From: Candidatus Peribacteria bacterium | GTDB taxonomy: Bacteria; Patescibacteriota; Gracilibacteria; Peribacterales; Peribacteraceae | Assembly: GCA_041691135.1 (NCBI GenBank) | Contig: JBEPVF010000003.1 | Coordinates: 32,001-96,000, forward strand | Reading direction: 5' to 3' | Length of the DNA stretch: 64,000 nt | Part shown: positions 10,126 through 19,935 of the stretch, piece by piece | How the letters are laid out: every line of letters begins with the position of its first letter | Position numbering within the stretch: the stretch's first letter is position 1 | Translations under genes and position numbers: made by a program | The notes under the pieces: generated by a model | What the model was told of the DNA's origin: nothing | The model's input: only the letters and a program-made list of their open reading frames with translations | Database searches by the model: none

Positions 10126-11052
10126 CTACGCTTTCCCAAGCGCCGGCACAGTTTCCCTGAACAGCGACGCAACGACGTCCAAGTCTTCATTCACGATCAA
10201 GTGATCGAAGAGATCGCGGCGTTCTTTGAAGAATGCCAGATCCAGTTCGGCGTTCTTGAGACGATCTTGAATGTTCTCTTCCGTCTCACGGCCACGGCCG
10301 CGAAGGCGGTGGAGCAGGGAACTGAGCATAGCGCGCTTGCTCTTGCCCGGCGGCAGCAGGCCGAAGCTGAGAATGGAGCGGCGGCCAAAGTGTTCGCCCA
10401 GGCCTTGAAGCAGGTGCATTTCTGTGATGACGATCGGCAGCAGTCCGGCGTTCCAGATAGCTTTGATATCGCTGGCGCGGTAGCCGTACCAACGGTCTTC
10501 GGATCGGGAGGGGATGTTGGTGGCGGCAATAATCTCACCGGCACGCTGTAGGCGGTCGAATTCTTTTTTGGTCATGTACACGTACTCGCCATCGTCGCCT
10601 TTCTTTTTCGTCCGCGTCGTCAGAATGGGGACATTGCGCGACGAGGTGCTGAACATCGAGACGAGCATGCGGGCGATCGTGGTCTTGCCGACGCCGGACG
10701 GTCCGGTCAGCGCGAGGATGTAGCCGGGGAAAGCGATGGTTTCTTCGCTTACCGGAGCGGTTTTCGTGGCAGGGATTTCGTACGCCACTTCGTAGATGCG
10801 CAGATGATCTTTGGCGACGTAACTCAGGCGCATGCGCGGAATAACCATCATGCCGATTGCTGGTTTGGAACCGGTCAGCGGAGCCATCACTTTCGATCCG
10901 TCAGCCAGCTTGATAAGTGCGATGCTGCGATGGCCGGCACCGAAATGTTCCGGCGGATGTGCGAGCGTCGTAAACGACAGGATCGTTCCTTCTTGCATTC
11001 TACGGCGTTCCTCGGCTTGTCGGCGGGCGATACTGGGTGATGATTCGGGCAT
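10126..11052 (-). CDS. fusion of DUF35-type OB-fold (no Zn ribbon) and guanylate-kinase-like P-loop domain
   Basis: N-term GTILSFT..HPP..F...IALIKLADG....IGM.V....R; C-term TGPSGVGKTT, TTR, WYG, RLRGRGRETEENIQDRL, IVNEDL; directly downstream of the thiolase. Confidence 0.85.
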   Translation of the reverse strand: MPESSPSIARRQAEERRRMQEGTILSFTTLAHPPEHFGAGHRSIALIKLADGSKVMAPLTGSKPAIGMMVIPRMRLSYVAKDHLRIYEVAYEIPATKTAPVSEETIAFPGYILALTGPSGVGKTTIARMLVSMFSTSSRNVPILTTRTKKKGDDGEYVYMTKKEFDRLQRAGEIIAATNIPSRSEDRWYGYRASDIKAIWNAGLLPIVITEMHLLQGLGEHFGRRSILSFGLLPPGKSKRAMLSSLLHRLRGRGRETEENIQDRLKNAELDLAFFKERRDLFDHLIVNEDLDVVASLFRETVPALGKA

Positions 11053-11066
11053 GGATCGGTGGGAGT

Positions 11067-12194
11067 TTACTGGAGATGTTCAAGAATGTGGAGGCCGCAG
11101 GTGGCTCCGGCACCGCCGAAATTATGGCTCAGTCCATAACGTGTGCCGGCTGCCTTTAGTTGTTTGGCGATGTCGATGAACTGCTTGATGCCCGTCGCGG
11201 CGACAGGGTGGCCGCAGGCTTTAAGACCTCCGCTTTTGTTTACCTGGAGGCCCATCATCGTCGGACGCTCATACAACTCGCGGTAGATGCTGATGCCGTC
11301 GCCTTCGTTGGCAAATCCCAAATCTTCCATGTTGATGACGGCGGCGATGGAGAAGCAGTCATGCGTTTCGACATGGCTGATTTCGTCGCGATCGATGGCG
11401 GCTTCGGCCAGGGCCTTCTCCATTGCTTTTTTTGAAGCGCTGAACGAGGTGAGGCTCGGGCGATCGGCCAGACTGAGTGTGTCGGTGGTGAGTTGTGACG
11501 CCGCTACGCGGAAGTTGCTCTGGTATTTGGTCGAGAGGATGCAGGCGGCCGCACCGTCGCTGATGGGAGAGCAGTCGAGGAGTCGCAGTGGGTCGGCGAT
11601 CGGCGAGCTTTTGGAGACGGCTTCAGGTTTCACTTCCATGCGAAACTGCGCGAAGGGGTTTTCCAATGCCTGACGATGATGCACAGCTGAAACCAAACTC
11701 AATTGGTCTCGCGTCAGACCATAGTCGTGCATGTAGCGTTGGGCGACGAGTCCAAAGATTCCCGGGAACGTGAGTCCGGCCGGCCGGTCCTGCTCGCTAT
11801 CGGCAGCGCCCATCAGGGCCGAGGCAATCTGATCGTTCGTCGCGTCGGTCATTTTTTCGGCACCGATGACGAGAATTGTCTGCGCTCGGTTCGATTCGAG
11901 TAAGGCGCAGGCAGTGTGAATAGCCACTGATCCGCTGGCACAGGCCGCTTCCACGCGAATGGCAGGAGGTTTGTGCGGCAGGAACGACGCGACCATGGCG
12001 CCCATATGCGCCTGATCCGATGCTACTTCGCCGATCATATTGGCGACGATCACCATATCGATGTCGAGTGCAGTGGCTGGAGAATGCTCGATGGCGCCAT
12101 CGACGACTTCGCGCGCCAGATCGCGCAGGCTTTTATCCCAATGCTCGCCGAAGCGGGTTTGAGATGAACCGATGAGAAAGAGGGGCTTTTCCAT
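11067..12194 (-). CDS. acetyl-CoA acetyltransferase (thiolase), archaeal/SCP2-like type
   Basis: VEAACASG, DCSPISDGAAA, ETHDCF, SGGLKACGHP, HNFGG. Confidence 0.93.
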   Translation of the reverse strand: MEKPLFLIGSSQTRFGEHWDKSLRDLAREVVDGAIEHSPATALDIDMVIVANMIGEVASDQAHMGAMVASFLPHKPPAIRVEAACASGSVAIHTACALLESNRAQTILVIGAEKMTDATNDQIASALMGAADSEQDRPAGLTFPGIFGLVAQRYMHDYGLTRDQLSLVSAVHHRQALENPFAQFRMEVKPEAVSKSSPIADPLRLLDCSPISDGAAACILSTKYQSNFRVAASQLTTDTLSLADRPSLTSFSASKKAMEKALAEAAIDRDEISHVETHDCFSIAAVINMEDLGFANEGDGISIYRELYERPTMMGLQVNKSGGLKACGHPVAATGIKQFIDIAKQLKAAGTRYGLSHNFGGAGATCGLHILEHLQ

Positions 12195-12273: not shown

Positions 12274-13314
12274 TCATGAATGAGCAGAAGAAAGAGCCTT
12301 GGTATGATTCAAATACTCAGCGTAGCTCAAGTAGGCAATGTCGCGATCATCGGGAGGAAGCAGCACTCCATTGCGCTGCATCGTCATCAGGAAGGCATCG
12401 GATCCGGCGCCGGATCCGTAACTCACCAATAGAATGGTTTCGGCTTTCTTGGCATGTTGCAGCACTTCCGTGAGTCCGAGCGGGGAGCAGGCGCTGTAGG
12501 TGTTGCCGATGCGCGGCACGATGAATCCGTGATGGCACTGCTCGTGCGTGAAGCCGAACTTCTTGAGGATGCGGGAGGGGAATTTGGCGTTCGGCATATG
12601 GATGACGACGTGGTCGATCTCCTCTACTTTCTTGCCCGTTACTTCCAGAATGCCGCGCAACGCTTCTTCGATATGGCGGAAGTAAGCCGGTTCGCCGGTA
12701 AAGCGCCCAGCATGGTTTGGATATTTTTCGCCGTTCGCACGCCAGAAATCAGGAGTATCGGTGGTAAAGCTGAGCGTGTGATCGATGCGACAGAGCGCAT
12801 TCTTGGCACCACTTGAGCCAATCACGAAGGCAGCGGCGCCAGCGGCAGCCGTGTATTCCAGTGCATCGCCCGGTCTGCCTTGTGCCGTATCTGTTCCAAT
12901 CGCCAGGCCATACTGGATCTGTCCGCTGCGCACGAACGTGTCCACGATCTGCATGGCGGCCGTGCCGGCTTTGCAGGCAAATTCCAGATCCGCAGCGTGC
13001 GAAAAAGGATGGAGGTTCAGCGCGGCAACGAGCATGCCGCTCGTTGGTTTGACGGCGTACGGATGACTCTCGGAGCCGACGAAACACGCCGAGACCTCGC
13101 TCGATTCAATGCCGGCAATCTCGATTGCCTGACGGGCGGCTTCGAAGGCCATGGTAAAACTGTCTTCATCCTTGCCGGGAACCGTCTTTTCCTCAATACC
13201 CAATGTCTTTGCGGTCTCCTCGCCGTCTTGCTGCCAATGCTGGGCGATGGCGGCTGTCTTCAGTCGGAAGGCAGGCAGGTAGCGGCCGAAACCGATGATG
13301 CTGGAAGGCGTCAT
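12274..13314 (-). CDS. hydroxymethylglutaryl-CoA synthase, archaeal type
   Basis: GSESHPYAVKP, DLEFACKAGT, GRFTGEPAYF, IGNTYSA, SYGSGAGSDAF. Confidence 0.95.
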   Translation of the reverse strand: MTPSSIIGFGRYLPAFRLKTAAIAQHWQQDGEETAKTLGIEEKTVPGKDEDSFTMAFEAARQAIEIAGIESSEVSACFVGSESHPYAVKPTSGMLVAALNLHPFSHAADLEFACKAGTAAMQIVDTFVRSGQIQYGLAIGTDTAQGRPGDALEYTAAAGAAAFVIGSSGAKNALCRIDHTLSFTTDTPDFWRANGEKYPNHAGRFTGEPAYFRHIEEALRGILEVTGKKVEEIDHVVIHMPNAKFPSRILKKFGFTHEQCHHGFIVPRIGNTYSACSPLGLTEVLQHAKKAETILLVSYGSGAGSDAFLMTMQRNGVLLPPDDRDIAYLSYAEYLNHTKALSSAHS

Positions 13315-13627
13315 GAGACGAGAGGATAGCAAAAAACGGGCCAGAAGTCAGCGAAAGGCGGCTTCTTTCTCTTACAGTGGCTATTCTTGTGGCAATGCGC
13401 TATCTGCCTGTGGAAGCGGTATAGGAAGCAGCCGTATTCGCATTGCTGCCACAGGTTCATCACGTGGTACTTGTAACTCAACCAAACTTGTCGTTTTGGC
13501 ATCAGACGTCGGCTGCGCAAAGGCAGTTCCGATAGTGGCTCCTATTTGGTTGCGAGTATGAAAGGGTTTTCTACTTTTCACATCATGCGTGGTTCGTTGG
13601 CTCACGATGAAGGAAAAATCTGCCTCA

Positions 13628-14353
13628 TCAGGTCTTGGTTGATAGATTAATGGTCTTTGAATGCGTTTGCGTATCGACTGAGCCTTTTCCTCCTTCCATT
13701 TTCAATACTTCCGGTCCTACCTCATGTTCTTGTGCCATAAGTAATCTGGGCGTGCCTTTTTTATGCGGGTCCCATCCATTGAACGTCTCTTGTATGTCCC
13801 CGGAAGGGAGTGTCTCTCGCAAAAGTGGTATATCGCCGACACGTGTCACAAAAACGATCTGCTCAGTTTTTTCTCCCGACGCCATGACGATGTTCCCACG
13901 TCCATCGGAGCACAGTTGATTGAAGTCATTGGTGCGATGCAGGTTACGGGGATCGGTAAAGTTAAAAACGACGAAACCAAATTGCCGGCCCGGTTCAAGG
14001 TAAACGCAATAGTGTGGTGTGGCTTCGTCAGCTCCCTCAAGCGTGAACGGTTCGACAGAGTGCTGTTGAAGAGCAGCGTTTTCATCGTCTGGATTCATCG
14101 AGAGGAACTTTATTCCCACAACGCCGCCGTCAAATTTCTGAACCAAACTTCCATTAAGCATGAGGGGCATGGTCTGATCAATGATCTTTTCCTCCGGGAG
14201 GCCTTTGAGTATCTGGTTCCTCGCTTCAAGTTGTCGAATTATGTTTGGGTTGTGTTCAATAAGGTGCATCGTCGGATGCTCGCTTTGGTCTGCCAGTATG
14301 AGTGATCTGTTCATAAGGTATAGAACGAAAAAGGATTCATAGTGCCAAGGCAA
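13628..14353 (-). CDS. hypothetical protein inserted in the mevalonate cluster
   Basis: 241-aa ORF with lower GC; real start probably one of the downstream Met codons. Confidence 0.55.
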   Translation of the reverse strand: MPWHYESFFVLYLMNRSLILADQSEHPTMHLIEHNPNIIRQLEARNQILKGLPEEKIIDQTMPLMLNGSLVQKFDGGVVGIKFLSMNPDDENAALQQHSVEPFTLEGADEATPHYCVYLEPGRQFGFVVFNFTDPRNLHRTNDFNQLCSDGRGNIVMASGEKTEQIVFVTRVGDIPLLRETLPSGDIQETFNGWDPHKKGTPRLLMAQEHEVGPEVLKMEGGKGSVDTQTHSKTINLSTKT

Positions 14354-14375: not shown

Positions 14376-15533
14376 TCACCGGCCATGTTCCTTATGCGCC
14401 TTTGCCAATGTATGGCTCGCTTGGGCCGCTAGGAGTGAAATTTCTCCGGCCAGTACGGCTGCGCCAATACTTTCGGCCAATTGTTGGGTGGGCGACAGAG
14501 ATGTTGGGCTTTTCAGGAGCAAGTGCAGACATTGCTGCTGCGTGGGGAGTGCCGTGCCGCCGCCGCGAATACCGACGAGAAGAGCGGGAAGTCGCACATA
14601 TACTTTTAAGCCTTCATCCGTCAGCTCGACGCCGGTCGTGGCCATCGATCCCTCTACGGTGTGGGCGACGTCCTGCCCGGTTGCCAGATAAAGTGCGGCG
14701 ATGATATTGGCGACATGCAGATTGCGTCCAAGCATGCCGGCGACATCGGATCCGGCGATGAGTTTTGCATTGGCGACGGCGATCATTGTTTCGGCCGAAG
14801 ATTTTAACGACTCCTGCATCACTGCATGGGCGAGTGTTGCCTCAGCCGTCACTTCGTAGCCGCGCCCGCGCTGAATGGTGCGGAGGCTGGGCTTTTTGTC
14901 GCTGTCGACGTTGCCGGCGACAGTGATGAACTCGGCGATCTTCATGTCATTGCCGATCCATTCGCCGATGGCCTGTGCGGCGATGGTCACCATATTCATG
15001 CCCATGGCTTCGCCGGTATCGCAGAAAATAGTCAGGAAGACGAACTCCTCCTCCTCGTCCAGATCGAAAGTCAGAATCTTCAGATGGCTGCTCGTCGCTT
15101 CGCCTATTTTTGTCCATTCATCCTTGTGTCGAGTAATCAGGCGAATCGCCGAACGCGGATCCACGGACCGGAAGGCGATGGAACGGTTGGTGCCATGATG
15201 AATCGAGGAGGTGCGGACACCGCCGCTCTGCGTGAGCGCTTTGCAACCGCGGTTCACACTGGCTACCAGTGCGCCTTCGGTGGTGGCGAGCGGCAGATGG
15301 AGTGAAGACTCTTCGCCGGAACTGAACTGCACAGCCAGTGGTCCCGCGTAGCCGACAGGAACCGATACGATGCCGAACATCTGCTCGCAGTTCTTCTCGT
15401 CGGCCTGGCCGATATGCTGTTCATCCGCTTCCAGGAGAGACAGGTCGATGCCCAGTTCCTGTTCGATCAGCCGCCGACGTGCGGTGACGCGTTGCTCAGA
15501 AGACAGATCGGGTGGTAGGGAGCGGAGATCCAT
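14376..15533 (-). CDS. hmgA: HMG-CoA reductase (class I, NADPH type)
   Basis: NCEQMFG, PLATTEGALVASVNRG, EAMGMNM, GNVDSDKK, ATGQD, GGGT; start at MDLRSL. Confidence 0.93.
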   Translation of the reverse strand: MDLRSLPPDLSSEQRVTARRRLIEQELGIDLSLLEADEQHIGQADEKNCEQMFGIVSVPVGYAGPLAVQFSSGEESSLHLPLATTEGALVASVNRGCKALTQSGGVRTSSIHHGTNRSIAFRSVDPRSAIRLITRHKDEWTKIGEATSSHLKILTFDLDEEEEFVFLTIFCDTGEAMGMNMVTIAAQAIGEWIGNDMKIAEFITVAGNVDSDKKPSLRTIQRGRGYEVTAEATLAHAVMQESLKSSAETMIAVANAKLIAGSDVAGMLGRNLHVANIIAALYLATGQDVAHTVEGSMATTGVELTDEGLKVYVRLPALLVGIRGGGTALPTQQQCLHLLLKSPTSLSPTQQLAESIGAAVLAGEISLLAAQASHTLAKAHKEHGR

Positions 15534-15555
15534 TGTGATGAAAGATTCAAGAGGT

Positions 15556-16554
15556 TTAGAGCAGCGAGGCACCGGTGCCGGCTTGGGCTTCGAAGATGGT
15601 GCAGTTGGTTTGTTGTTTGGCATAGCCACGGATGGCTTCTACTGCTTCCTGGGTGCAGATCAGATGGACGGTCGCACCGGCATCCATGGTATAGAGGACA
15701 GGCAGATGCTGCGTGCGTCGCAGTTCGTTGATCTCGTCGACGATGCGGTTGGTGTCGGGCGTCAGGTAATTGAGTGATGGCGTACTGGTGCGCATCACGT
15801 CGTGCATGTTCAGACAGTCTTCCTCGGCGATGATTTGCAGCTTCTCAAAATCCTGCTGCTGGATGGCGTCGATGCATTCTTCCTGGCGGTGCGGAATCGA
15901 GGCGACGCGCCCGGCGAACAGGGGACTGCTCGGGGCGAACGTATGTCCTTCGGTGGAACCGTACTGCTTCTCGTTCATGCTGGGCGCGATGATGATGTCG
16001 TACAGGATCCAATAATCTTCCGGTGCAATCTGCACGGCGTACGCGCCGTCGATACTATCGTTTTCCACATGCATGGCACTGTACCCGCCGAACACGCCGC
16101 GACAGGCTGACCCACTGCCCAGACGAGCCAGGATACTGATCTGTTCCGATGTCAGTTCGATGTGTTCCTTGATCAGTCCGGCATACGCCGTTGCGACACA
16201 GCTAAATACAGCAGCCGACGAAGCGAGGCCGATAGCCGGTGGAATGTGCGACCGGATGGTGAGTGATACGGCCTGTGGCAGCACATCCGGTTGATCGAGC
16301 GTCGCCAGATAATGGCGGCAGAGTTCGAGGTGCTTCTGGAAGCGTTGCGTGTCTTTTTCTCGCAGTACTTTCGGTTTGCCATCAGCGTCGTACGAATCGA
16401 TATGCCATTGATCATGGGGTTCCACGCTGATGTCGACGGTGGGATTCGACAGCGTCATCGACAGCGAATCGGCGGCCGGAATGCGGAGCTCGGCATTGCG
16501 GTTTCCCCAGTATTTGATGAGGGCGATGTTGGGTGTGGAGCGGGCGGTAACCAT
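15556..16554 (-). CDS. mvaD: (di)phosphomevalonate decarboxylase
   Basis: NIALIKYWG, GLASSAA, ARLGSGSACR, YTMDAG. Confidence 0.93.
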   Translation of the reverse strand: MVTARSTPNIALIKYWGNRNAELRIPAADSLSMTLSNPTVDISVEPHDQWHIDSYDADGKPKVLREKDTQRFQKHLELCRHYLATLDQPDVLPQAVSLTIRSHIPPAIGLASSAAVFSCVATAYAGLIKEHIELTSEQISILARLGSGSACRGVFGGYSAMHVENDSIDGAYAVQIAPEDYWILYDIIIAPSMNEKQYGSTEGHTFAPSSPLFAGRVASIPHRQEECIDAIQQQDFEKLQIIAEEDCLNMHDVMRTSTPSLNYLTPDTNRIVDEINELRRTQHLPVLYTMDAGATVHLICTQEAVEAIRGYAKQQTNCTIFEAQAGTGASLL

Positions 16555-16587: not shown

Positions 16588-17457
16588 TCATCGATGCTCG
16601 ATGAGTGAGTAATCGTAGCGTTTTGCGATCGTCTGAACCACATCTGATTCCCGGTGCAGTGTCATCACCATGCCTCCGCCACCGGTTCTGGCTCCGGCAC
16701 CGATGATTTTGGCGACGCCGCCTTGGACTTCGATATCGGCGATGAGGCGTTGCACTGGCTCGGGGACAACTCCCAATTCCACTTGGGCCCGGTGATGATC
16801 CGGAATAACGGTCTGTGGAGACTCACCCTTCAGGAGTCGCTCAGTGCATTGACCTATGGCTTGAAGAGCGGGTTCAAGCATTGCCGCATGCTCCTTTACC
16901 CAGTCGACCAATGCCGGTGTCGTTTCGCCGGGTTTGCCCGTGTCGATGAGTATCGCGTTTGCCAAAAAATCGGTGCTGATGGGTGCCGATTGTACTGTCT
17001 CTCCGCGGCGGAAAAGGATGGGCTGATTGCGCCAGATGACCTCGAAATCAATGCCGCTGTGTCCGGGATTGAACTGATTTTCCATTTGCCGGCAAGCAGC
17101 TTCACAGTCATCGCCCAGGAGTGCTCTGCCGATTGCGATCAGAAGGGCGGTCGAGGACCCCATGCCACGCCCAAGTGGAAGAGCGTTGTCGATTGTGAGT
17201 ACTCCACTGAATTTTTCCCCCGCGTGTTCTTCGCAGGCAATAATCAGTCCGCTCACATATTTCTGCCATTCTTTACTCCATGGAATACCGGTCTGCCTGA
17301 TTTCCAGCCCCTTGGTTTCTGGTTTCTGGTTTCTGGTCTCGTCGTAACAAACCTGCATTCCCATCACAGATGGCGCCGCAATTCCCCGATGTCCGAATAC
17401 CACGGCATATTCACCGCTGAGGATGATCTTGCCGGAGGCGACACCGGTGCGGATCAT
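16588..17457 (-). CDS. mvk: mevalonate kinase (GHMP family)
   Basis: GKIILSGEYAVV, PLGRGMGSS, SGID, KIIGAG..GGG. Confidence 0.88.
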   Translation of the reverse strand: MIRTGVASGKIILSGEYAVVFGHRGIAAPSVMGMQVCYDETRNQKPETKGLEIRQTGIPWSKEWQKYVSGLIIACEEHAGEKFSGVLTIDNALPLGRGMGSSTALLIAIGRALLGDDCEAACRQMENQFNPGHSGIDFEVIWRNQPILFRRGETVQSAPISTDFLANAILIDTGKPGETTPALVDWVKEHAAMLEPALQAIGQCTERLLKGESPQTVIPDHHRAQVELGVVPEPVQRLIADIEVQGGVAKIIGAGARTGGGGMVMTLHRESDVVQTIAKRYDYSLIEHR

Positions 17458-18131
17458 GAGCCGAATCGGCGTGTCCGTTTGGAAAAATCGTCAACTGCAT
17501 GGGCCAGATCCTCAGTCGTGAAATCGGGGAAGAATTTGTCGATGAACAGCCACTCGGCGTAGGCGCTCTGCCACAGAAAAAAGTTGCTGGTGCGCTGCTC
17601 GCCCGATGTGCGAATGATGAGGTCGATGTCGGTGAGTTCGGGATGATCTAGTTGTATGTGTATCGATTCTTCTGTTGCGGTTGAGGGGTCGGGAAGCTTG
17701 TGAATGGCACGAATCAGCTCATCTTTGCCGCCGTAGTCGACAGCCAAATGCAGCGTGAGTTCGGTTTGATCCTTCGTTTCCTCGGTAATGTCGCGGATCA
17801 AGTTGGCGAGTGACGAGGGGATCCGATCGAGACGGCCCGAATGCACGAAGCGCGTTTTGTTCTGCAGAAATACCTGGCGCTCGCGTCGCAGATAGTCTTC
17901 CAGCAGCGTCATCAGATGGGCCACTTCGTCAGGATCCCGTTTCCAGTTCTCAGTCGAAAAGCACCACACGGTGAGGGTCTGCACCCGCGGATCGTCTTGA
18001 CACCACTCGGTAAGCGTGCGGAAGTTTTCTACTGCTCGTTCGTGGCCCTTCCACGGAAACAGCGTTCGTTGCTTGGCCCAGCGGCGATTGCCGTCGGGGA
18101 TGATGGCGATATGGAGCGGAGAATCGGGCAT
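17454..18131 (-). CDS. uppS: undecaprenyl/polyprenyl diphosphate synthase
   Basis: HIAIIPDGNRRWA, FSTENWKR, IRTSGEQRTSNF. Confidence 0.96.
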   Translation of the reverse strand: MPDSPLHIAIIPDGNRRWAKQRTLFPWKGHERAVENFRTLTEWCQDDPRVQTLTVWCFSTENWKRDPDEVAHLMTLLEDYLRRERQVFLQNKTRFVHSGRLDRIPSSLANLIRDITEETKDQTELTLHLAVDYGGKDELIRAIHKLPDPSTATEESIHIQLDHPELTDIDLIIRTSGEQRTSNFFLWQSAYAEWLFIDKFFPDFTTEDLAHAVDDFSKRTRRFGS

Positions 18132-18133
18132 GG

Positions 18134-18685
18134 TCAGTTCCAGGTAACGGCAGGGGATTCGATGATCATGCGCAGACCGAGGTGGAACCACGGCGCATAG
18201 TCGAGCGCATGTTCTTTCATATCAGTGCCGAGTTCGTCGAGATCGATCCATTTCCACTCGGCGACTTCATGGGGATCGGCATTGATGCGGATGTTCTCGT
18301 CGGCTTCACCGATCAGGAGAGTGACGTATTCGTGTTCGATACCTCGCTGCTGCGGATCTTCGGCGCGGTACACGAAAGACAGATGAGGGCGGAGGGGGAC
18401 GGAGAAACCCAGTTCCTCACCCAGTCGGCGTTCACCGGCTTGCTCCGGTGCTTCATGGTCCTGCGGATGACTGCAGCAGGTGTTGGCCCAAATGAGCGGC
18501 CAGAGCATTTTTTTGGCACTGCGTCGTTGGATCAGTATTTTGGATCGGTCGGCATTGAAGACATAGACCGAAAAAGCCAAATGCAAAGAGCCTTCGCCGG
18601 TGTGTGCCTGCACGATCTCCATCGATCCGGTGGGCATGCCATTCGGATCACTCAGTATCACCGTCCTTTTGGCCTGGGGTTCCAT
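18134..18685 (-). CDS. idi: isopentenyl-diphosphate delta-isomerase type 1
   Basis: LHLAFS, WANTCCSHP, RRLGEELG, IEHEY, PWF. Confidence 0.95.
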   Translation of the reverse strand: MEPQAKRTVILSDPNGMPTGSMEIVQAHTGEGSLHLAFSVYVFNADRSKILIQRRSAKKMLWPLIWANTCCSHPQDHEAPEQAGERRLGEELGFSVPLRPHLSFVYRAEDPQQRGIEHEYVTLLIGEADENIRINADPHEVAEWKWIDLDELGTDMKEHALDYAPWFHLGLRMIIESPAVTWN

Positions 18686-19215: not shown

Positions 19216-19839
19216 TTAGCGTCGGCTCTTCTTCTTACCCTTGCCGCCCTTCTTCGCTGCCGCTTCCTTAGCCGGCTTGCTGCGCTTCGCTGCTTTCTTG
19301 AGTGGCTTCTTCGTTTTCTTGGCCGCTTTCTTCATGGTCTTCGTTACTTTCTTGGCGGCTTTCTTTACGGGCTTCTTCGCTTTGGTCGGTCGCTTCACTG
19401 TCTTTTTGATAGCCTTTTTCTTGGCGACTGGCTTCGTTGCCTTCTTTGCTTTGGCAGCAGCTTTCTTGACCGGAGCTTTCGTGGGCTTCTTGGCCGGGGT
19501 CATTTTCGGGACCGGTACTTTGATCGTCTTCGGTGCGGCGATGCCGGACTTGGCTGTGTCGTCGAACATGGTGCCACCGGCATTGTTTGCCTGCTTGTCA
19601 CCTTTTTCTCCGTCATCAGGCGACGATGTGCCGACACGCGGCTTCACACTGCCTGCCTGCTTCGGTTGTTTGTCGGTGAAGGGCGACAGATCATTTTTGG
19701 AGGTGGCATTGTCGGAGTCGCTGCGTCCCGTGTCTTTGTAGTCGAAGCTCTGGCCCGGTCCATCCGTAGGCGGGTTGGCATTGGGCGTATTCTTGAAAAT
19801 AGACTGGAAAGGCCGTTGCTGTGGTTGATCGGAGAACAT
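19216..19839 (-). CDS. histone H1-like Lys/Ala-rich protein
   Basis: C-terminal half made of PAKK/KKAA/KKTK repeats; start at MFSDQP. Confidence 0.75.
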   Translation of the reverse strand: MFSDQPQQRPFQSIFKNTPNANPPTDGPGQSFDYKDTGRSDSDNATSKNDLSPFTDKQPKQAGSVKPRVGTSSPDDGEKGDKQANNAGGTMFDDTAKSGIAAPKTIKVPVPKMTPAKKPTKAPVKKAAAKAKKATKPVAKKKAIKKTVKRPTKAKKPVKKAAKKVTKTMKKAAKKTKKPLKKAAKRSKPAKEAAAKKGGKGKKKSRR

Positions 19840-19935
19840 GGGTGTTGAGAGTAAAAGTAGGTAAAGAACTCTATGCCTCGCGATGAACTGAAACAAGCCT
19901 TTGAGTGAATATGTTCAAAAAAAGAGCACAAGGCT

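Follow-up and report, generated by a model that had tools for sequence, protein, structure and literature searches.

The window, a stretch of 64,000 nucleotides from a Peribacteraceae (CPR) genome of 1.74 Mb (35 contigs, 92.3% complete), carries a mevalonate (MVA) pathway cluster in which all genes lie on the minus strand in the order IDI-UppS-MVK-decarboxylase-HMGR-HMGCS-thiolase-fusion. The terminal gene of the cluster encodes a protein of 308 aa in which part of a DUF35 protein is joined to a guanylate-kinase (Gmk)-like domain. The features are as follows:

10126..11052, (-): fusion gene, DUF35 OB-fold plus Gmk-like P-loop kinase
10153..10731, (-): Gmk-like kinase domain, about aa 108-300, from PF00625 and motif residues
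10681..10704, (-): P-loop GPSGVGKT, aa 117-124
10768..11001, (-): OB-fold, C-terminal half of DUF35, about aa 18-95, without the zinc ribbon
11067..12194, (-): archaeal-type acetoacetyl-CoA thiolase (NF004720, 376.6 bits), 14 bp upstream of the fusion gene
12274..13332, (-): archaeal-type HMG-CoA synthase, HMGCS (NF003274, 430.3 bits, cut-off 244)
14376..15629, (-): class-I HMG-CoA reductase, HMGR (PF00368, 313 bits)
15556..16554, (-): GHMP decarboxylase with the phosphomevalonate-decarboxylase signature YWGN...LRIP...GSTEGH, nearest solved structure 6n0x
16588..17457, (-): CPR-type mevalonate kinase, MVK (TIGR00549, 80.3 bits, below the cut-off of 163), the only GHMP kinase of the genome
17454..18191, (-): UppS, cis-prenyltransferase (TIGR00055, 208.6 bits)
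18134..18685, (-): type-1 IPP isomerase, IDI-1 (NF002995, 159.6 bits, cut-off 127)

These profile matches recover, on the same strand, the neighbours that the initial annotation had listed from the sequence, and the same order (IDI-UppS-mvk-pmd-HMGR-HMGCS-thl-fusion) recurs among the loci of the family. Pfam profiles place OB_ChsH2_C (PF01796) at aa 20-70 of the fusion (29.4 bits, cut-off 27.1) and Guanylate_kin (PF00625) at aa 114-295 (45.7 bits, cut-off 25.2), both above cut-off, which bears out the earlier proposal that DUF35 and a Gmk-like domain are fused in this gene. No match to NF040647 (AA-kinase), PF00288, or PF04275 is seen for the fusion among the Pfam and NCBIfam profiles. The long start of the protein is favored because residues before Met19, such as Arg10, show a conservation of 90% or more in the family alignment. 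Database relatives, of which there are several hundred, are named "guanylate kinase", "OB-fold domain-containing protein", or "hypothetical protein".

The whole genome contains two GHMP proteins, one kinase and one decarboxylase, and both are encoded in the MVA cluster. AA-kinase genes number three in this genome (proB and two pyrH genes), none of which encodes an isopentenyl-phosphate kinase (IPK), and the profile of animal-type phosphomevalonate kinase (PMK), PF04275, has no match in the genome even at E <= 1. The absence of a second GHMP kinase, a PMK, and an IPK, claimed initially for the cluster, therefore extends to this whole-genome search. None of the 121 family genomes has an IPK above cut-off, the best score (68 bits) being obtained on proB-like ORFs, and an AA-kinase of genome G210 that we considered as a possible IPK is proB-like instead. 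We also looked for a kinase hidden in or near the clusters. Neither Pfam nor NCBIfam gives a match for the 241-aa ORF at 13628-14353, which lacks an equivalent in 85 other clusters, and none of ten variable ORFs, located in the clusters of relatives either between HMGCS and HMGR or behind the incoming gene pair described below, has a kinase domain; five are without a Pfam match, and the other five are an IS200-like transposase, an inositol monophosphatase, a HAD hydrolase, a HalD-like protein, and a weakly matched zinc finger. A canonical gmk (198 aa; PF00625, 88.2 bits; TIGR03263, 134.8 bits) is present on another contig, and all five of the other family genomes tested likewise have a separate canonical gmk. 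Thus the arrangement that would tell against a repurposed kinase, a fusion serving as the only gmk of a genome with a PMK or IPK elsewhere, is not what this genome contains. The same gap was evident in five closed Peribacteria genomes described in 2016, for which the covered passages report genes for the steps leading to MVA-5-P and for those starting at MVA-5-PP in a "near-complete" pathway (PMC4736985), and the fusion is a candidate gene for the step left vacant since then. The portions of the literature covered for a precedent of the fusion or the kinase, among them passages of PMC13001223 and PMC12960953, yielded no paper on a Gmk-like MVA kinase; PMVK/IPK calls for individual genomes or an annotation of this gene may be given in the supplements of PMC6107057 and PMC4736985.

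We aligned 123 family members with six canonical Peribacteraceae Gmk sequences. The P-loop, G117-K123, is almost invariant in the family (V121 in 99%, the six other positions in 100%), and the motifs of the kinase domain comprise TTR145-147, Y157, Y189-G-Y191, and the LID residues R249/R251/R253/R255/R264. Among the 123 sequences, T145 (99%), T146 (95%), R147 (100%), Y157 (100%), Y189 (99%), G190 (98%), R253 (99%), and R264 (100%) are retained; positions that are invariant in Gmk are replaced (S142P, 99%; A143I, 99%; E176A, 80%; T191Y, 100%; D211E, 98%), and conserved arginines appear anew at 187, 224, 225, 240, 249, 251, and 255. Relative to Gmk, FLE becomes I(I/V)A, YGT becomes YGY, and (E)VD(V)QG becomes (V)ITEMH(L). 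The replaced Ser, Glu, Thr, and Asp positions are presumably the guanine-binding sites of Gmk. Residue calls that had been made by eye hold in this alignment, with the TTR Arg, the Tyr that follows GE/GD, and the Tyr of YG kept and the base-recognition positions changed, and the description of the domain as a diverged Gmk paralog, distinct from the genome's own gmk product, agrees with the score of only 74.8 bits on the guanylate-kinase equivalog TIGR03263 (NCBIfam; cut-off 160.45). It is scarcely credible that the protein is simply a second guanylate kinase incidentally fused to DUF35. Although PF00625 is over cut-off, the nearest solved relatives are guanylate kinases, and some relatives carry that name, the equivalog score lies far under its cut-off, Gmk-invariant residues are replaced, a canonical gmk occurs in every genome tested, and loss or decay of the gene tracks MVA gene content, not nucleotide metabolism.

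The fusion is present in 89 of the 121 family genomes and in 84 of the 86 that possess HMGR, one of the two misses being explained by a contig end inside the thiolase gene. Among 151 class genomes searched, it is seen only in Peribacteraceae; other CPR have an IPK or a second GHMP kinase instead, and in G093 and G273 (same class and phylum) an IPK gene is found in the equivalent cluster, without the fusion. Co-occurrence of the fusion with PMK-less MVA clusters across CPR, for which the initial annotation had proposed a test, does not extend beyond this family in the class genomes searched. Two genomes with neither HMGR nor IspH carry intact kinase-only homologs as part of a UppS - His-phosphatase - kinase row, and three MVA-less genomes have UppS and no such kinase. 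Genome G092 has an intact kinase-only copy yet no UppS, IDI, HMGR, or GHMP gene, and in G007 the fusion is present with no decarboxylase at all.

A natural experiment is provided by 58 clusters of known gene context, in which 12 key residues of the kinase domain were scored. In nine of these clusters, the native decarboxylase is replaced by an inverted pair consisting of an MVK-like GHMP kinase and a decarboxylase, and all nine have lost between two and five of the 12 residues (R147 to A, L, C, or H; also Y157, Y189, R253/R255, and R264), whereas all 49 clusters without the pair show zero or one change; over all clusters that gained the pair, losses range from two to six. When whole genomes are considered, the incoming kinase type is found in 16 of 18 genomes with a degenerate domain and in 2 of 65 with an intact one, the key residues being strictly conserved in 65 of the 83 assessable fusions. 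Loss of these residues upon arrival of a third GHMP kinase is what would be predicted if the domain were the missing monophosphate-to-diphosphate kinase, and this pattern supports the original suggestion that a kinase was repurposed for the missing step. Fast-evolving lineages do not account for the change in the kinase: identity of the thiolase to that of the window is 63.9 in the group with the pair versus 64.0 in the group without it, HMGCS, HMGR, and the OB domain are likewise equally conserved in both groups, and kinase-domain identity to the window protein is 48.8 for degenerate versus 62.5 for intact copies. On a thiolase+HMGCS tree, which represents neighbouring genes and not species, the trait changes seven times and all five independent supported pairs agree (sign test, p = 0.0625). 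A single genome, G198, combines the incoming pair with an intact kinase.

In other CPR, the incoming pair belongs to three-GHMP operons that have no IPK, the incoming kinase outscores the co-resident MVK on PMK models, and the incoming decarboxylase has Lys or Arg at position 21. The pair therefore looks like a PMK together with a diphosphomevalonate decarboxylase (MDD), with the PMK identity taken from context. By HMM cut-off (TIGR00549, 189.8 versus 163) and by its solved relatives, the incoming GHMP kinase is a mevalonate kinase, and the native kinase scores just 80.3 bits on the same model, its conserved positions being the same whether or not the pair is present. These observations would suit a scheme in which the Gmk-like domain replaces mevalonate kinase by phosphorylating the 5-OH group, the native GHMP kinase performs the monophosphate-to-diphosphate step, and the incoming MVK makes the domain redundant. 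We regard this scheme as very improbable, however, because the only GHMP kinase in an IPK-bearing relative, necessarily an MVK, is more similar to the native kinase than to the incoming one (median 54.7 versus 29.1 bits), and because the incoming type stands beside a second MVK-like kinase in other CPR. Moreover, members of the Gmk family are known to transfer phosphate onto a phosphate, not onto a hydroxyl, and the scheme leaves the kinase-only copies in MVA-less genomes unexplained. MVK and PMK may differ in a motif that would read GEH in the former and GEY in the latter; in 56 rows of native kinases this position is Y in 50, H in 4, F in 1, and a gap in 1.

The degenerate kinase domains are themselves under constraint. 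Five close pairs give dN/dS values of 0.05-0.17, which rules out neutral decay. Of ten native pairs computed, eight have unsaturated dS; seven of these give values of 0.04-0.07 and the remaining one gives 0.22. All but one of the 18 degenerate copies retain the P-loop Lys, and purifying selection together with retention of this residue implies that the kinase domain has some further role. It might accordingly be proposed that the main role of the Gmk-like domain is structural or regulatory, within a thiolase/HMGCS/DUF35 particle and perhaps as a sensor of ATP or a phospho-metabolite, or that it is a kinase for some other phosphate ester, such as longer prenyl phosphates or a cofactor, the missing kinase then being one not yet recognised. 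The domain is never deleted, selection persists despite loss of key residues, the P-loop Lys gives way to Arg or Thr in fusion relatives that are more distant, and the pathway inventory of G007 is incompletely understood, as would be consistent with such a role; so would the copy in G092, a genome without any isoprenoid genes. There is also a precedent in the guanylate-kinase-like domains of MAGUK proteins, which derive from Gmk and have been retained after losing catalysis, and MAGUK matches are seen for the family profile. Nevertheless, we consider a mainly non-catalytic or unrelated function decidedly unlikely, given that catalytic-type residues are strictly conserved in most of the assessable fusions, that they are lost in step with arrival of the GHMP kinase/decarboxylase pair, and that no other conserved candidate kinase lies in or near the clusters.

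Whether the missing kinase would act before or after decarboxylation depends on the type of decarboxylase. The window enzyme gives 178.9 bits against 6n0x, the A. thermophila phosphomevalonate decarboxylase (PMD) treated in passages of PMC9254496, compared with at most 116.4 for classical MDDs; sequence differences between 6n0x and 6n0z were taken into account as well. Overall similarity to PMD does not discriminate, the incoming decarboxylase being even nearer to 6n0x (261.6 bits), and the His/Met position of these enzymes is inconsistent across the calibration set. At position 21, all four CPR decarboxylases from operons without IPK (three of them confirmed three-GHMP operons) have Lys and both from IPK-bearing clusters have Gln or Thr, a rule that is calibrated on these six enzymes with the route taken from context, and that has three exceptions; Table 4 of PMC3857490 agrees with the pattern. 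The N/R/H signature is found in 47 of 49 native decarboxylase orthologs, the other two sequences being cut, and Asn occupies position 21 in 47 of the 49 native Peribacteraceae enzymes. Asn in place of Lys21, as in the PMD type, makes the missing step likelier to be IP to IPP than MVAP to MVAPP. The monophosphate-to-diphosphate role put forward in the initial annotation is thus supported by the Gmk ancestry, the lack of any PMK or IPK found, and the pattern of residue loss, but its headline of a phosphomevalonate kinase gives way to an IP kinase as the likelier assignment.

A PMK that converts MVA-5-P into MVA-5-PP, with the native decarboxylase acting on the diphosphate, is nonetheless an alternative that we judge unlikely but worth weighing, and the gap, the cluster linkage, and the natural experiment fit it equally well. 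The window decarboxylase passes the diphosphomevalonate decarboxylase HMM (178.1, cut-off 171.35), and the many extra conserved arginines could suit a carboxylate-bearing substrate. In addition, the clusters of G164, G171, and G192 have a Lys21-type decarboxylase and one GHMP kinase beside a Gmk-like domain that is fully intact, there being no third GHMP protein, so that by the calibration a PMK would be needed there. On the other hand, Asn21 is the residue of the solved PMD and prevails among native decarboxylases, whereas Lys is found in the four CPR enzymes from operons without IPK. The decarboxylase is swapped together with arrival of an extra GHMP kinase in nine of nine context-known cases, and only a change in the order of steps would require such an exchange. 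Finally, kinase-only copies stand beside UppS in genomes without MVK or decarboxylase, where MVA-5-P would not exist.

The N-terminal domain of the fusion is the sole match to PF01796 in the genome, and in 83 of 85 loci the thiolase gene immediately precedes the fusion gene, the remaining two being cut by contig ends. Homology and adjacency suggest that the OB domain may tether the fusion to the thiolase/HMGCS pair. In the literature passages covered, a DUF35-HMGS fusion is already in print and no DUF35-kinase fusion was found.

On balance, we think it probable that a Gmk-derived domain that no longer recognises GMP performs the monophosphate-to-diphosphate step of the lower MVA pathway, most likely IP to IPP, and that the OB domain represents the DUF35 scaffold half that anchors the fusion on the thiolase/HMGCS pair. 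We infer substrate, catalysis, and physical tethering from sequence comparisons. In the route that we propose, MVA would be converted to MVA-5-P by the CPR-type MVK and MVA-5-P to IP by the PMD-type decarboxylase; the kinase domain of the fusion would then make IPP from ATP and IP, and IPP would pass onward to IDI and UppS, with the OB domain predicted to hold the fusion on the thiolase and HMGCS encoded upstream. In a broader and more tentative form of this proposal, which is plausible although we would stop short of calling it probable, the Gmk-derived IP kinase would be a third, independently evolved family for the monophosphate-to-diphosphate step, built into the thiolase/HMGCS particle through a zinc-less DUF35 such that the first and last steps share one complex, and free copies would make IPP from scavenged IP for UppS in relatives that no longer have the pathway.

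Were the assignment as an IP kinase correct, the second phosphorylation would have a new enzyme family beside the GHMP PMK, the animal P-loop PMK, and the AA-kinase IPK, a housekeeping nucleotide kinase would have been recruited into lipid-precursor synthesis, and the scaffold of the entry complex would carry, by fusion, an enzyme from the end of the pathway. Several hundred database proteins would have to be reannotated, and a small P-loop IP kinase might become available for isoprenoid engineering. Repeated replacement by the GHMP pair would amount to switching, inside one bacterial family, between a decarboxylate-then-phosphorylate and a phosphorylate-then-decarboxylate route.

Several known systems resemble parts of this arrangement. 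In the archaeal thiolase/HMGCS complex, a DUF35 chain is matched by the family profile (6esq_E/6et9; E 8.7e-5, residues 48-111 of 130), and the fusion gene comes after a thiolase and an HMGCS of archaeal type, but the fusion has only the OB half and an additional kinase domain. A zinc ribbon is not matched by Pfam in the fusion, the alignment with 6esq_E begins at chain residue 48, and there is no Cys in the entire protein, another difference from the archaeal scaffold. With Gmk, the kinase domain shares its fold family (the family profile matches 1ex6/1gky, E 4e-18) as well as the P-loop, the TTR Arg, the two Tyr, and the LID Arg; it differs by inserts of three and five residues, seven extra conserved Arg, fusion to DUF35, location in an MVA cluster, and a score below the equivalog cut-off. 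MAGUK domains, which are eukaryotic and bind proteins, resemble the degenerate copies, yet 65 of 83 fusion copies keep all catalytic-type residues. Ribose 1,5-bisphosphate phosphokinase, PhnN, belongs to the Gmk family and forms a diphosphate on a phosphate ester other than a nucleotide, a chemistry in keeping with the reaction proposed here; its profile (TIGR02322) matches the family weakly, at 24-30 bits and far under the cut-off of 156, and context and motifs differ. Animal-type PMK (PF04275) has a P-loop fold like that of NMP kinases and also transfers phosphate onto phosphate in the MVA pathway, but the origin of the fusion kinase from Gmk would be independent and its substrate is more likely IP. 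The AA-kinase IPK (NF040647) shares the proposed reaction and pathway position with the fusion kinase, to which it is unrelated in fold and has no sequence similarity.

The DUF35::guanylate kinase (Gmk)-like fusion recognized in the initial annotation at the end of the mevalonate (MVA) cluster is real, as judged from its open frame (308 codons), its Pfam matches, and its place as the final gene in a row that runs in one direction:

18134-18685, minus strand: IDI-1, first in the MVA row
17454-18191, minus strand: UppS, second in the MVA row
16588-17457, minus strand: GHMP kinase
15556-16554, minus strand: MVD-like decarboxylase
14376-15629, minus strand: class-I HMGR
12274-13332, minus strand: archaeal-type HMGCS
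11067-12194, minus strand: archaeal-type thiolase, directly before the fusion
10126-11052, minus strand: DUF35::Gmk-like fusion

Pfam places the DUF35 OB domain (PF01796) at aa 20-70 (29.4 bits; cut-off 27.1) and Guanylate_kin (PF00625) at aa 114-295 (45.7 bits; cut-off 25.2), and the fusion scores 74.8 bits on the NCBIfam guanylate-kinase equivalog model, the cut-off of which is 160.45. The protein has no cysteine, Pfam detects no zinc-ribbon domain in it, and PF01796 has no other match in the whole genome. The HMGR and decarboxylase frames, as called, share 74 bp (15556-15629), and the HMGR start, a GTG at 15629, is probably placed too far upstream because Pfam aligns the protein only from aa 48 onwards. 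Among relatives, the gap between HMGCS and HMGR accepts variable insertions and holds an IS200-like transposase (genome G160), an inositol monophosphatase (G178), a HAD hydrolase (G197), or a HalD-like gene (G187); in the window it holds a 241-aa ORF (13628-14353, minus strand) with no Pfam or NCBIfam match and a counterpart in 0 of 85 related clusters. A 226-aa ORF at 19216-19896 (minus strand) has a long, Lys/Ala/Pro-rich C-terminal half with KKAAKK-type repeats that recall the tails of histone-H1-like or DNA-binding proteins.

The fusion kinase family is well defined by sequence comparison. A word-indexed search returned 569 relatives of the fusion at E ≤ 0.001, the best 120 of which have 285-334 aa, 56-100% identity and, in nearly all cases, both domains. 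When the kinase part was searched exhaustively on its own, 19 representative clusters passed E ≤ 1e-30, comprising fusions (~300 aa) and free kinases (~200 aa), beyond which scores drop to generic Gmk-like proteins. When 123 family sequences are aligned with six canonical Gmk proteins from the same bacterial family, the P-loop, TTR, Y157, Y189-G190, R253, and R264 are conserved in 95-100% of the 123. Positions invariant in the canonical enzymes are altered (S142P 99%, A143I 99%, E176A 80%, T191Y 100%, D211E 98%), and these are positions that we take, from the yeast enzyme structure, to bind guanine. The family also carries two inserts relative to canonical Gmk and its own conserved arginines (187, 224, 225, 240, 249, 251, and 255). 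In distant metagenomic fusion relatives the P-loop Lys is replaced by Arg or Thr. Among solved structures, the family profile matches guanylate kinases best in its kinase part (E ~4e-18) and, in its N-terminal part, 6esq_E/6et9 (E 8.7e-5), a DUF35 chain from the archaeal thiolase/HMGCS complex, aligned over residues 48-111 of 130, which form the OB half.

Whether the fusion is the sole gmk of the source genome (1.74 Mb, 35 contigs, completeness 92.3%, contamination 3.8%) was set beforehand as a refutation test of the proposal that it supplies a missing phosphomevalonate kinase (PMK) or isopentenyl phosphate (IP) kinase (IPK); a second, canonical gmk is present on a different contig (198 aa; PF00625 88.2 bits, TIGR03263 134.8), as is the case in all five Peribacteraceae genomes tested. 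Genome-wide searches for GHMP proteins (two, both within the MVA cluster), amino-acid kinases (three genes, proB and two pyrH), the IPK model (best score 37.6; cut-off 120), and the animal PMK family PF04275 (no match at E ≤ 1) found no canonical PMK or IPK elsewhere. Both pyrH copies are full-length and bacterial (L006:1495-2199 on contig C20 and L007:1402-2199 on contig C1; 333.9 and 311.4 bits on TIGR02075); having two reflects either gene duplication or the 3.8% contamination. The kinase gap does not stem from the way this genome was assembled, because the report on five closed Peribacteria genomes describes genes that yield mevalonate and mevalonate-5-P and that convert mevalonate-5-PP onwards, in a pathway termed 'near-complete' (PMC4736985).

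Co-occurrence with PMK-less MVA clusters, proposed at the outset as a check across the CPR, holds within Peribacteraceae, where 84 of the 86 HMGR-bearing genomes also have the kinase (89 of 121 genomes at E ≤ 1e-20), but strong matches are confined to this family among 151 genomes sampled across the class, those outside it reaching canonical gmk level only. HMGR is found in 11 of the 151, ten in Peribacteraceae and one (G093) in a different family. In one of the two HMGR-only genomes (G176) the contig stops within the thiolase gene; the five kinase-only genomes divide into two with incomplete assemblies and three (G092, G159, G163) whose free kinase lacks the OB domain. No IPK above the cut-off is present in the 121 genomes, the top score of 68 bits coming from proB-like frames; G210 has an IPK candidate of 261 aa, which was rejected as proB-like. 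Thiolase is the gene immediately upstream of the fusion in 83 of 85 fetched loci, the other two ending at contig edges, and the commonest order, IDI-UppS-mvk-decarboxylase-HMGR-HMGCS-thiolase-fusion, is found whole in 38 loci and in part in many others. The 100% complete genome G007 (L013, G007:C1:28000-44000) has IDI-UppS-mvk-HMGR-HMGCS-thiolase-fusion with an intact kinase but an MVD-like decarboxylase in no part of the genome, and thus no recognized enzyme for its step from MVA-5-P to IP/IPP. Two close relatives in public records are labelled Kaiserbacteria and Saccharibacteria (P0053; L028) against hundreds from Peregrinibacteria, which probably reflects binning or labelling error and not wider distribution.

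The native decarboxylase bears on which phosphate is the acceptor. Among solved structures it is closest to 6n0x/6n0y (178.9 bits, against at most 116.4 for the classical diphosphomevalonate enzymes); according to PMC9254496, 6n0x is the Anaerolinea thermophila phosphomevalonate decarboxylase with MVA-5-P bound, the specificity of which was switched via mutagenesis. It shares YWGN...LRIP and GSTEGH with wild-type 6n0x, whereas these two motif positions are Lys and Met in the variant chain 6n0z, as in classical enzymes. Overall similarity to 6n0x is not diagnostic, however, as the decarboxylase of an incoming gene pair found in some relatives scores 261.6 bits. Diphospho enzymes conserve Lys21 (S. 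epidermidis numbering), and monophospho enzymes have another residue there (PMC3857490, Table 4). We calibrated this position on CPR clusters, with the route inferred from context: it is Lys in operons without an IPK over the cut-off (G445, G527, G600, and G288; two GHMP kinases confirmed in three, one recovered in G288), Gln (G273) or Thr (G093) in IPK-bearing clusters, and Asn in 47 of 49 native Peribacteraceae enzymes (two cut). The His/Met position fails to follow pathway context. On the decarboxylase evidence, the native route would run MVA -> MVA-5-P -> IP, and the missing enzyme would be an IP kinase. Three clusters (G164, G171, G192) combine a Lys21-type decarboxylase and an intact kinase with no third GHMP protein; in these, either the kinase would need to serve as a PMK or the position-21 rule does not hold.

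In nine context-readable clusters (L008, L040, L043, L045, L046, L048, L053, L063, L074) the native decarboxylase is replaced at the same site by an inverted pair, in which a GHMP kinase exceeding the mevalonate-kinase (MVK) cut-off is joined by a decarboxylase whose position 21 is Arg. The lineages concerned are dispersed across the thiolase/HMGCS tree, which suggests repeated transfer or recombination of the pair within the family. The native GHMP kinase is co-present in all eight pair clusters whose contig extends that far, with 1-2 conservative changes over 46 conserved positions. It is the MVK because it is closer than the incoming kinase to the MVK of the IPK-bearing G093 (median 54.7 vs 29.1 bits). 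Elsewhere in the CPR, the incoming type stands second in operons of the form MVK-like - incoming type - decarboxylase, and exceeds its neighbour on PMK models (TIGR01220 93-105 vs 48-71; archaeal PMK 80-98 vs 31-36). The simplest reading of these sequences is that the pair is PMK plus diphospho decarboxylase (MDD), which would substitute for monophospho decarboxylase (PMD) plus the Gmk-like kinase.

All nine pair clusters have a Gmk-like domain that has lost 2-5 of 12 otherwise fixed residues (R147 to A, L, C or H; Y157; Y189; R253/R255; R264), against 0-1 changes in all 49 pair-free clusters of known context. Genome-wide, the incoming kinase type occurs in 16 of 18 genomes with a degenerate domain, the exceptions (G175, G231) being fragmented genomes that show the pair's opposite gene orientation, and in two of 65 with an intact domain: G198, whose sister G244 retains the native set, and G201, with one key change plus others. 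Median identities to the window's proteins, degenerate versus intact, are alike for thiolase (63.9 vs 64.0), HMGCS (67.7 vs 68.6), HMGR (59.9 vs 59.5), and the OB domain (45.5 vs 47.3), and fall for the kinase domain (48.8 vs 62.5). On a FastTree tree of thiolase plus HMGCS, which follows linked genes and not species, pair and degeneracy each need seven changes, and the two traits agree in each of the five independent pairs that have branch support (p = 0.0625 by sign test, the minimum attainable with five pairs). Arrival of PMK plus MDD would release the acceptor and catalytic residues of the Gmk-like kinase from constraint. Kinase-domain dN/dS is 0.05-0.17 in five close sequence pairs from genomes with the incoming genes; ten native pairs were computed, and of the eight with unsaturated dS seven give 0.04-0.07 and one 0.22. 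The P-loop Lys is retained in 17 of 18 degenerate copies. These ratios and the retained Lys show that the degenerate domain does not drift freely and must still serve some function, perhaps a structural one.

In G159 and G163, which lack HMGR and IspH, an intact free kinase stands in the row UppS - histidine phosphatase - kinase - UDP-GlcNAc 2-epimerase, a context that would fit IP salvage. The PF00300 gene between UppS and kinase (L031:5150-5779 and L030:8570-9178, both minus strand) may make this row a small operon for handling prenyl phosphates. Two other patterns among MVA-less relatives count against the proposed role: G092 has the kinase but neither UppS nor IDI, and G102, G039, and G149 have UppS without the kinase. 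The same holds for the three clusters with a Lys21-type decarboxylase and an intact kinase, the decarboxylase-less G007, the constraint still acting on degenerate domains, and the P-loop Lys substitutions in distant relatives.

We infer activity and binding of the fusion protein throughout. The initial proposal is supported in its general form, that a Gmk paralog was recruited for a monophosphate-to-diphosphate step and attached to a DUF35 scaffold, but IP is a better guess for its substrate than MVA-5-P. The literature records and article passages searched gave no description of a DUF35-kinase fusion or of a Gmk-like kinase in the MVA pathway. The excerpted text of Hoshino and Gaucher reports MVK, PMVK, DPMD, and sometimes IPK across the CPR, and names Peregrinibacteria merely as MVA carriers (PMC6107057). 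Compared with known systems, the fusion kinase would do the job of IPK (or PMK) but belongs to neither family; it shares the fold family of Gmk but not its equivalog score or base-site residues; and its OB domain resembles that of DUF35 proteins but is without the zinc ribbon described for them (PMC2954200; PMC12960953).
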